DNA from: Escherichia coli
Lineage (GTDB): Bacteria; Pseudomonadota; Gammaproteobacteria; Enterobacterales; Enterobacteriaceae
Assembly (NCBI RefSeq): GCF_044324875.1
Contig: NZ_CP172185.1
Length of the DNA: 64,000 nt
Direction: 5' to 3' (one strand)
Of this stretch, positions 4,595-4,782 are shown piece by piece (position 1 is the first letter of the stretch; each line of letters begins with the position of its first letter). The position numbers and the translations under genes are program-made. The notes under the pieces are model-generated. The model searched no databases. It was not told the DNA's origin and saw only the letters and a program-made list of their open reading frames with translations.

Positions 4595-4700
4595 ATCTTT
4601 GCTCCACTACAGGGTTATCCTGGAGCATGTTGTACATAACATCATGGGCAAAGAATACCAAAAATCGCTCATATCGATCGGGACAAATATTTAACAAATT

Positions 4701-4749
4701 CAGCCCTGACATTGAGCAGCTTTTTTTGCGCTGCGTAGTGTCAGGGCTG
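4701..4749 (-). terminator. putative intrinsic terminator downstream of malZ (11-bp perfect stem with nested inner stem)
   Basis: cagccctgaca (4701-4711) pairs with tgtcagggctg (4739-4749); on the minus strand the stem is followed by an A/T-rich tract. Confidence 0.4.
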
Positions 4750-4782
4750 GTGACTAACGACGTAACAAATAAAACAGATGCT

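Follow-up and report, generated by a model that had tools for sequence, protein, structure and literature searches.

The acpH-malZ interval of Escherichia coli raises two related questions, namely, to which piece of DNA does a strong hairpin located just past the stop codon of malZ belong, and what might such a structure do for the genes on either side of it. The window, i.e. the entire 64,000-nt stretch of DNA that was analysed, contains the E. coli region tgt-queA-acpH-malZ-proY-brnQ in an orientation that is inverted relative to K-12, based on the list of open reading frames (ORFs) and the RefSeq annotation of strain GMF065. The features that bear on the two questions are as follows.

2535-3116, plus strand: acpH (ACP phosphodiesterase), convergent with the orphan ORF, the stop codons of the two being 20 nt apart.
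3111-4782 (approximate), no strand given: accessory insert of ~1.67 kb, located between the convergent acpH and malZ and replacing the ancestral TTR-TAA-NNNN.
3137-4594, minus strand: orphan ORF of 485 aa, a 'hypothetical protein' (ECs_0454 in Sakai), with ~30-45 % GC, mostly <40 %.
4592-4605, minus strand: Shine-Dalgarno GGAG (4605-4602), 7-nt spacer and ATG (4594-4592) of the orphan ORF, all without variation in the sequences compared.
4684-4700, minus strand: A/U-rich tail after the hairpin, AAUUUGUUAAAUAUUUG, a weak, interrupted U-tract.
4701-4749, both strands fold: two-tier hairpin of 49 nt, with an outer stem of 11 perfect pairs and an inner stem of 5 pairs.
4750-4782, minus strand: 33-nt spacer from the malZ stop to the hairpin, insert-specific and forming the right end of the insert; the K-12 and outgroup junctions diverge directly after the malZ stop.
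4783-6599, minus strand: malZ (maltodextrin glucosidase), based on the ORF list, the RefSeq annotation of the 99.6 %-identical strain GMF065 and alignment to GMF065 malZ.

The GC content is ~52-56 % in the flanking genes vs 30-45 % across 3100-4700, and the AT-rich segment 4501-4700 stands at 34 %. The malZ stop codon is a TAA at 4783-4785 on the minus strand. Within the malZ of the window, a G-run near 5575 (5570-5580) has a 1-bp deletion (GCTGGGGGA to GCTGGGGA, relative to GMF065) that splits the gene into two overlapping ORFs (5424-6599 and 4783-5616), and either malZ is a genuine pseudogene here or the homopolymer was misread in sequencing. The insert is ~99.8 % identical to that of GMF065, yet the adjoining malZ differs at 59 sites (~3.2 %; 4783-6599 compared with 3137-4782), a mosaic identity which suggests, at the level of sequence, that there are recombination breakpoints near the malZ 3' end. 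On the other side of acpH, the queA-acpH intergenic region and acpH 5' end (2407-2531, plus strand) give a sub-threshold Rfam match to the Vibrio antisense RNA AS5 (RF02818), which covers the whole model at 38.7 bits (E = 4e-6), against a gathering score of 96.

The ownership of the hairpin was assessed by a megablast comparison of 2400-5100 with 5426 complete E. coli genomes, in which carriers were defined by at least 80 % query coverage. The insert is carried by 1126 of these genomes (~21 %), O157:H7, O55:H7 and CE10 among them, with a 'hypothetical protein' annotated between acpH and malZ; in the other genomes (~79 %), the flanks match only. A sensitive blastn search with 4596-4782 located the region in 1127 of the 5426 genomes, at a single place in each and always at this locus. 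One partial match, in HS-02 (NZ_CP172818.1), was rejected as a remnant of the insert, as it consists of a ~1.1 kb poly-T assembly artefact at the insert position. Thus, the hairpin is single copy per genome and present only together with the insert. Alignment to K-12 had been put forward in the first-pass annotation as a way of telling whether the hairpin is native to the malZ 3' region, and the answer is that it is not; K-12 and every other uninserted E. coli genome are without the hairpin, which therefore belongs to the insert. In the K-12 junction, the acpH and malZ stop codons are just 4 nt apart (...GCG TTA TAA AACG TTA GTT...), with no hairpin between them, and the stop codons are also 4 nt apart in an uninserted strain that we take to be of phylogroup B2. 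The same stop-NNNN-stop junction occurs in a second uninserted E. coli strain and, based on acpH loci taken from one genome per species, in Escherichia albertii and three further Escherichia lineages outside E. coli, none of which has the insert. Since four other Escherichia species are uninserted, the uninserted state is ancestral in the genus, and the ~1.67-kb segment is an insertion. The hairpin is therefore part of the accessory orphan-gene insert and not a native malZ terminator, and the annotation is corrected to that effect.

Although the hairpin had been suggested to mark the right-hand boundary of the inserted DNA, the inserted sequence runs 33 nt further to the right, up to the malZ stop codon. 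At the left end, the last codon and stop of acpH have gone from TTR TAA to CTC TGA, with Leu-stop still encoded; i.e. the acpH 3' end (3108-3119) reads CTC TGA in insert-bearing strains vs TTA or TTG followed by TAA in all uninserted Escherichia. These altered codons place the insertion breakpoint inside the last two codons of acpH, Leu-stop having been recreated. The insert flanks contain neither terminal inverted repeats nor long direct repeats, and near the left junction there is a single direct repeat of 13 nt (85 %). As for a source, neither the insert nor the hairpin has a match in the phage collection or viral contigs, and a plasmid origin was rejected when the sole PLSDB matches, NZ_CP134663.1 and NZ_CP141089.1, proved to be 4.9-Mb chromosomes and not plasmids. 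In Salmonella, Pluralibacter and others, the acpH-malZ junction holds an unrelated AhpC/peroxiredoxin-like gene of 200 aa, as in the following two loci.

Salmonella arizonae locus, 4792-5394: AhpC-like gene between acpH and malZ.
Pluralibacter MAG locus, 4665-5357: AhpC-like gene between acpH and malZ.

The presence of an unrelated gene at the junction in other genera implies that the acpH-malZ interval is a variable spot in the Enterobacteriaceae. In many species of Citrobacter and Enterobacter, malZ is not within 4 kb of acpH. Overall, the locus neatly exemplifies accessory DNA set down precisely at the meeting point of two convergent core genes, where there is normally no terminator, and in roughly one in five E. 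coli strains, O157:H7 among them, the insert gives malZ a different 3' context. The orphan insert itself and its exact seat between convergent stop codons are of more interest than is the hairpin.

The anatomy of the hairpin is as it was first described. The 11-bp perfect inverted repeat that had been claimed is there, 4701-4711 (CAGCCCTGACA) being the exact reverse complement of 4739-4749 (TGTCAGGGCTG), as is the nested inner stem, in which GCAGC at 4716-4720 pairs with GCTGC at 4730-4734. The claim that the structure sits just past the malZ stop also holds, as the hairpin lies 33 nt downstream on the malZ-sense strand and before the next gene there. The apical loop (4721-4729) is 9 nt long and contains a homopolymer run of five to seven bases, depending on the strain. 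As minus-strand RNA, the hairpin has a 4x4 internal loop that parts the outer and inner stems, and, as plus-strand RNA, G.U pairs at 4712-4738 and 4714-4736 render the stem almost continuous. The inverted-repeat pattern occurs once in the window vs 0.00 times expected from 100 shuffles. A folding-energy calculation, proposed earlier as a check, gave -31 kcal/mol for the minus strand (z = -3.96) and -35.9 kcal/mol for the plus strand (z = -5.0), both in a 103-nt context, and 0 of 200 shuffles folded as well as the hairpin. The 49-nt hairpin alone comes to -29.0 kcal/mol (minus) vs -34.3 kcal/mol (plus), and the ~6 kcal/mol by which the plus-strand fold is more stable than the malZ-sense fold is due to the G.U pairs. 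Among 25,576 sliding 60-nt folds covering both strands of the 64-kb window (mean -13.0, sd 4.8), the hairpin is the second most stable, a rank that it reaches despite AT-rich surroundings. Other very stable folds in the window are at 61211-61270 (plus strand, -38.4 kcal/mol) and 47886-47945 (minus strand, -30.8 kcal/mol), the latter of which is a long near-perfect palindrome, TATACTATAGGGGGGTAT.... With Rfam covariance models, no family matched 4595-4782 even when E-values as high as 10 were allowed. The 3' arm of the hairpin also buries the AUG of a 55-codon ORF (4545-4712, minus strand), which overlaps the start of the orphan ORF in another frame, has no obvious Shine-Dalgarno and is probably spurious.

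Conservation was examined by comparing eight complete genomes, the window included, and 30 metagenome contigs that had been recovered by a pattern outside the hairpin. Of the 39 sequences compared, 38 span the hairpin, and these resolve into 16 intergenic haplotypes. All 38 retain the structure, at -25 to -30 kcal/mol on the minus strand and -33 to -37 kcal/mol on the plus strand, and its variation is restricted to the loop homopolymer (five to seven A on the minus strand), two arm changes, each seen once, and two changes in the internal loop. In one haplotype (L100), a double change adds a U-A pair adjoining the inner stem, and, in another haplotype group, the outer stem is lengthened to 12 bp. 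Variable columns amount to 2 of 32 in the stems vs 20 of 123 elsewhere in the intergenic region, a difference that is not significant (one-sided Fisher p = 0.12). The 16 haplotypes, whose intergenic sequences share 96-99.5 % identity, have diverged too little for a meaningful covariation test of the hairpin. The hairpin is, in sum, an ordinary terminator-like stem-loop that is both real and conserved.

Whether this stem-loop terminates malZ transcription, as the first-pass annotation had proposed, is a matter on which the evidence is mixed. In favour of the proposal are the stable stem and its position on the sense strand; against it is a poor U-tract, which makes its status borderline. The tail, AAUUUGUUAAAUAUUU (start, AAUUUGUU), has five U in its first eight nucleotides, but AA comes first; its second base varies between A and G across strains. 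When a terminator score in the style of d'Aubenton-Carafa was computed, the hairpin scored -38, or +1 when the tail was counted from its third base. By the same score, the control terminators trpA t and T7 Te were at +22 to +30 and rrnB T1 was at -25, and, with a genuine terminator such as rrnB T1 being wrongly rejected, the score is not decisive. A consensus terminator scan with a loop limit of 3-8 nt did not call the hairpin, and its 9-nt apical loop, being over that limit, is likely one reason for this result. On the plus strand, no U-tract follows the hairpin; rather, GUGACUAACG comes next. A strong hairpin that follows the malZ stop on the sense strand, with the next gene beyond it, could plausibly serve as a terminator or insulator in strains that carry the insert. 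Judging from its anatomy, then, the hairpin plausibly serves malZ transcripts in those strains as a leaky terminator and a 3'-end protective structure.

The gene on the far side of the hairpin has an upstream region of 188 bp within the insert, and its reading frame is intact in most strains. Close homologues of the orphan protein are all E. coli or Shigella 'hypothetical proteins', and an exhaustive HMMER search of 1.84 billion cluster representatives returned one full-length cluster, fragments of the orphan protein and one marginal match. Searches against Pfam, PADLOC, PHROGs, NCBIfam and PDB sequences gave nothing significant, and the AlphaFold2 model (mean pLDDT 41.6) was too poor to support a fold search. 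Within the ORF, a 12-bp tandem repeat at 3651-3764 (consensus about CGCAATTTTTTC, six to eight copies) encodes an EKIAKK-type stretch, and this repeat explains why homologues vary in length from 466 to 493 aa, mostly in 4-aa steps. The values of dN/dS, mostly 0.2-0.7, indicate that the gene is weakly constrained. The ORF also contains a perfect 22-bp palindrome at 4449-4470, TTTTCATTTCC/GGAAATGAAAA. Residues 102-158 of the protein (window ~4121-4291) are weakly similar to three PKD-domain repeats of P0140, a 947-aa metagenomic protein (library-wide E-value, 1.7e-4), which hints at a possible Ig-like beta-sandwich domain. A search of the literature on the orphan gene (ECs0454, Z0502) and on malZ with acpH found nothing relevant, and two EHEC studies list no entry for the orphan gene in their RNA-seq and Ribo-seq supplements.

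Two elements within the AT-rich segment between the hairpin and the orphan ORF have to be considered as possible promoters for the gene.

4697-4692 and 4674-4669, minus strand: candidate promoter of the first-pass annotation, TTGTTA, 17 nt, ATATGA, unsupported (position-weight matrix [PWM] score -5.2; -10 sub-score -9.1).
4652-4660 (read as 4660-4652), minus strand: extended -10-like TGgTATTCT without a -35, the best alternative by eye, weak and speculative (PWM score 3.8, below the median of 5.5).

For the former, the hexamers are indeed present on the minus strand with the spacing that had been claimed, but the -10 matches TATAAT at 0 of 6 positions and the PWM score is -5.2; the register one base downstream, TATGAG, has a 4/6 match to TATAAT but lacks the final T. 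For the latter, the hexamer is TATTGT in O157. The PWM was a simple one, with frequencies after published compilations, and by its measure the best minus-strand site in 4560-4830 scores 4.6, less than the median top score of 5.5 among 271-nt segments of the window; i.e. no sigma-70-like site in 4560-4830 is above the window background. In keeping with that, a consensus promoter scan found no minus-strand site in 4595-4700, and inspection by eye, unscored, found no sigma-54, sigma-32 or sigma-28 motifs with correct spacing in the same segment. The strongest promoter-like sites on the minus strand sit inside the AT-rich orphan ORF.

Mapped transcription start sites (TSSs), which had also been suggested as a means of locating the start of the orphan transcript, are available from Zehentner, Scherer and Neuhaus (BMC Microbiol 2023, PMC10469882), who determined the primary 5' ends of O157:H7 EDL933 by Cappable-seq, in triplicate, under eight conditions, i.e. 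in LB, LB + NaCl, LB + malic acid and minimal medium, with exponential and stationary cultures of each. EDL933 is not the strain of the window, and the O157 region is 98.9 % identical to the window. The EDL933 tables list malZ as locus 2330 (484499-486313) and the orphan gene as locus 2335 (486501-487946), and in none of the eight conditions is there a TSS on either strand of the 187-nt intergenic region (486314-486500) between them (PMC10469882, supplementary files 5 and 6). The master list of TSSs has nothing between 485123 (minus) and 487331 (plus), and locus 2335 has zero gene-associated TSSs, while malZ TSSs were detected at 484466 and 484476 (PMC10469882). Inside the orphan gene, the data set has one weak sense signal, found in one condition and flagged as degradation, and a reproducible antisense TSS at 487650 (~ window 3433, plus strand) in six of the eight conditions, and a further TSS lies just past the orphan stop, at ~ window 3135 (minus strand) (PMC10469882). 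The weak sense signal, which falls at ~ window 3752-3764 (minus strand), adjoins a strong promoter-like TTGACA-15-TAAAAT (-35 from 3792, -10 at 3771-3766). Spurious promoters in foreign DNA of high AT content typically give such a picture. Based on both sequence analysis and EDL933 Cappable-seq, the label of 'promoter region' that had been given to 4595-4700 is unsupported, although a silenced or condition-specific promoter may still be compatible with the absence of a TSS in the eight EDL933 conditions. The orphan gene is probably silent or only conditionally expressed in laboratory conditions.

Our preferred reading, for which we judge the chances to be about equal either way, is that the hairpin arrived with the insert and serves malZ read-through as a leaky terminator that also stabilises 3' ends, with termination, stabilisation and insulation being what we infer from the structure. 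By this account, the ~1.67-kb segment would have been acquired horizontally as one orphan gene together with its 188-bp upstream region, hairpin included. In ~21 % of E. coli genomes, the segment occupies the exact gap between the stop codons of the convergent acpH and malZ, and this position makes the hairpin the first structure met by the malZ transcript, 33 nt past the stop. The hairpin would then act at the RNA level, on the minus strand, as a leaky, non-canonical intrinsic terminator, might also block 3' exonucleases on malZ read-through transcripts, and may partly insulate the AT-rich orphan gene downstream.

Two other readings seem to us unlikely, and equally so, but deserve serious consideration. 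In one, which is raised by the lack of a recognisable promoter, the orphan gene would be transcribed only via read-through from the MalT-dependent malZ promoter, with the hairpin either setting the level or being an RNase III-type processing site that separates the messages; indeed, the succession of lower stem, 4x4 internal loop and upper stem presumably resembles, by analogy, the RNase III sites of phage T7. If the hairpin were to gate read-through in this manner, then a lineage-restricted and uncharacterised gene would be tied to the maltose regulon. Consistent with the idea are the weak terminator tail, the intact and invariant Shine-Dalgarno and ATG of the orphan, the lack of sigma-70-like sites above background, and the EDL933 data, in which there is no intergenic TSS in eight conditions while malZ TSSs 484466 and 484476 are detected (PMC10469882). 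However, a -29 kcal/mol hairpin with a U-rich stretch more likely lowers read-through than leaves it neutral, and the orphan gene is possibly just silent. In the other of the two readings, the hairpin would be a terminator or other signal of the donor genome that was carried along passively, with no selected function in E. coli and with its conservation reflecting nothing more than low divergence. The 96-99.5 % identity of the whole intergenic region, the non-significance of the lower variation in the stem, and the weak constraint on the orphan gene itself (dN/dS mostly 0.2-0.7) are in line with a relic; on the other hand, the hairpin has been lost in none of the 38 spanning sequences, and the few changes that it has incurred are mild or extend the stem.

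The remaining readings are a good deal less probable. That the plus-strand RNA is the functional form, e.g. as a 3' protective stem for antisense transcripts coming from the orphan gene or from acpH read-through, would fit with a fold that is consistently ~6 kcal/mol more stable, with arm variants in haplotypes L008 and L009 that keep or gain pairing on the plus strand only, and with the EDL933 antisense TSS (487650) inside the orphan gene in six of eight conditions (PMC10469882). However, the hairpin is followed on that strand by GUGACUAACG and not by a U-tract, the antisense TSS is ~1.3 kb away, and the variants constitute two observations, each of which could about equally well have favoured either strand; hence we regard this as quite improbable. 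About as improbable is the possibility that the 1.67-kb segment is a self-contained minimal gene cassette of an undescribed kind, in which the two-tier hairpin would be a control module for an orphan gene that has no homologue among the 1.84 billion cluster representatives, coupling it to maltodextrin-induced malZ read-through or serving insertion. Such a cassette would have come to rest exactly between the two convergent stops, restoring Leu-stop to acpH. Least credible of all, to the point of being nearly dismissible, is a role at the DNA level, i.e. a palindrome that was used for cassette insertion as a recombination, attC-like, cruciform or protein-binding site. A single ORF with an imperfect palindrome does recall an integron cassette, and the left arm has an RYYYAAC-like ATTTAAC 5 nt ahead of it, but there is no complementary GTTRRRY core at the matching right-hand position and neither an integrase nor a cassette array, the flanks being acpH and malZ. 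Moreover, the hairpin is 33 nt inside the insert and not at its end, is single copy, and is absent from the phage, plasmid and viral collections.

The uninserted malZ-acpH junction of K-12 has the same flanking genes in the same convergent orientation as does the window, but only 4 nt separate its stop codons, and no hairpin lies between them. Compared with an integron gene cassette and its attC site, the insert is similar in joining a single ORF to an imperfect palindromic element, but dissimilar in that it lacks paired R''/R' cores, an integrase and an array, and in that its palindrome is off the cassette boundary; the attC interpretation was rejected for want of both the complementary core site and an integron setting. 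Like the REP/BIME elements, such as that of malE-malF, the hairpin is a stable stem-loop in an intergenic region where a mal-regulon message ends, and could block 3'-5' exonucleases. However, unlike the REP elements, which number in the hundreds, the hairpin is present in a single copy, occurs in 21 % of strains and has no similarity elsewhere in the genome, and a REP-like element was rejected because there is one copy per genome and one in the window. With Rho-independent terminators, the hairpin shares a G+C-rich stem-loop located directly past the stop on the sense strand and followed by a U-rich stretch (five U in the first eight nucleotides). It differs from them in its unusual length (49 nt), in its two tiers with a 4x4 internal loop between them and 9 nt in the apical loop, and in having a tail that starts with AA and is interrupted, a score that is well below that of classical terminators, and no call in the consensus scan. 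Finally, although the insert is not in a prophage, has its hairpin upstream and not downstream of the gene, and is without a recognisable promoter, a detected TSS or phage homologues, it resembles the phage morons in consisting of one AT-rich gene of foreign composition that, along with its own flanking non-coding DNA, is placed precisely between two resident genes.
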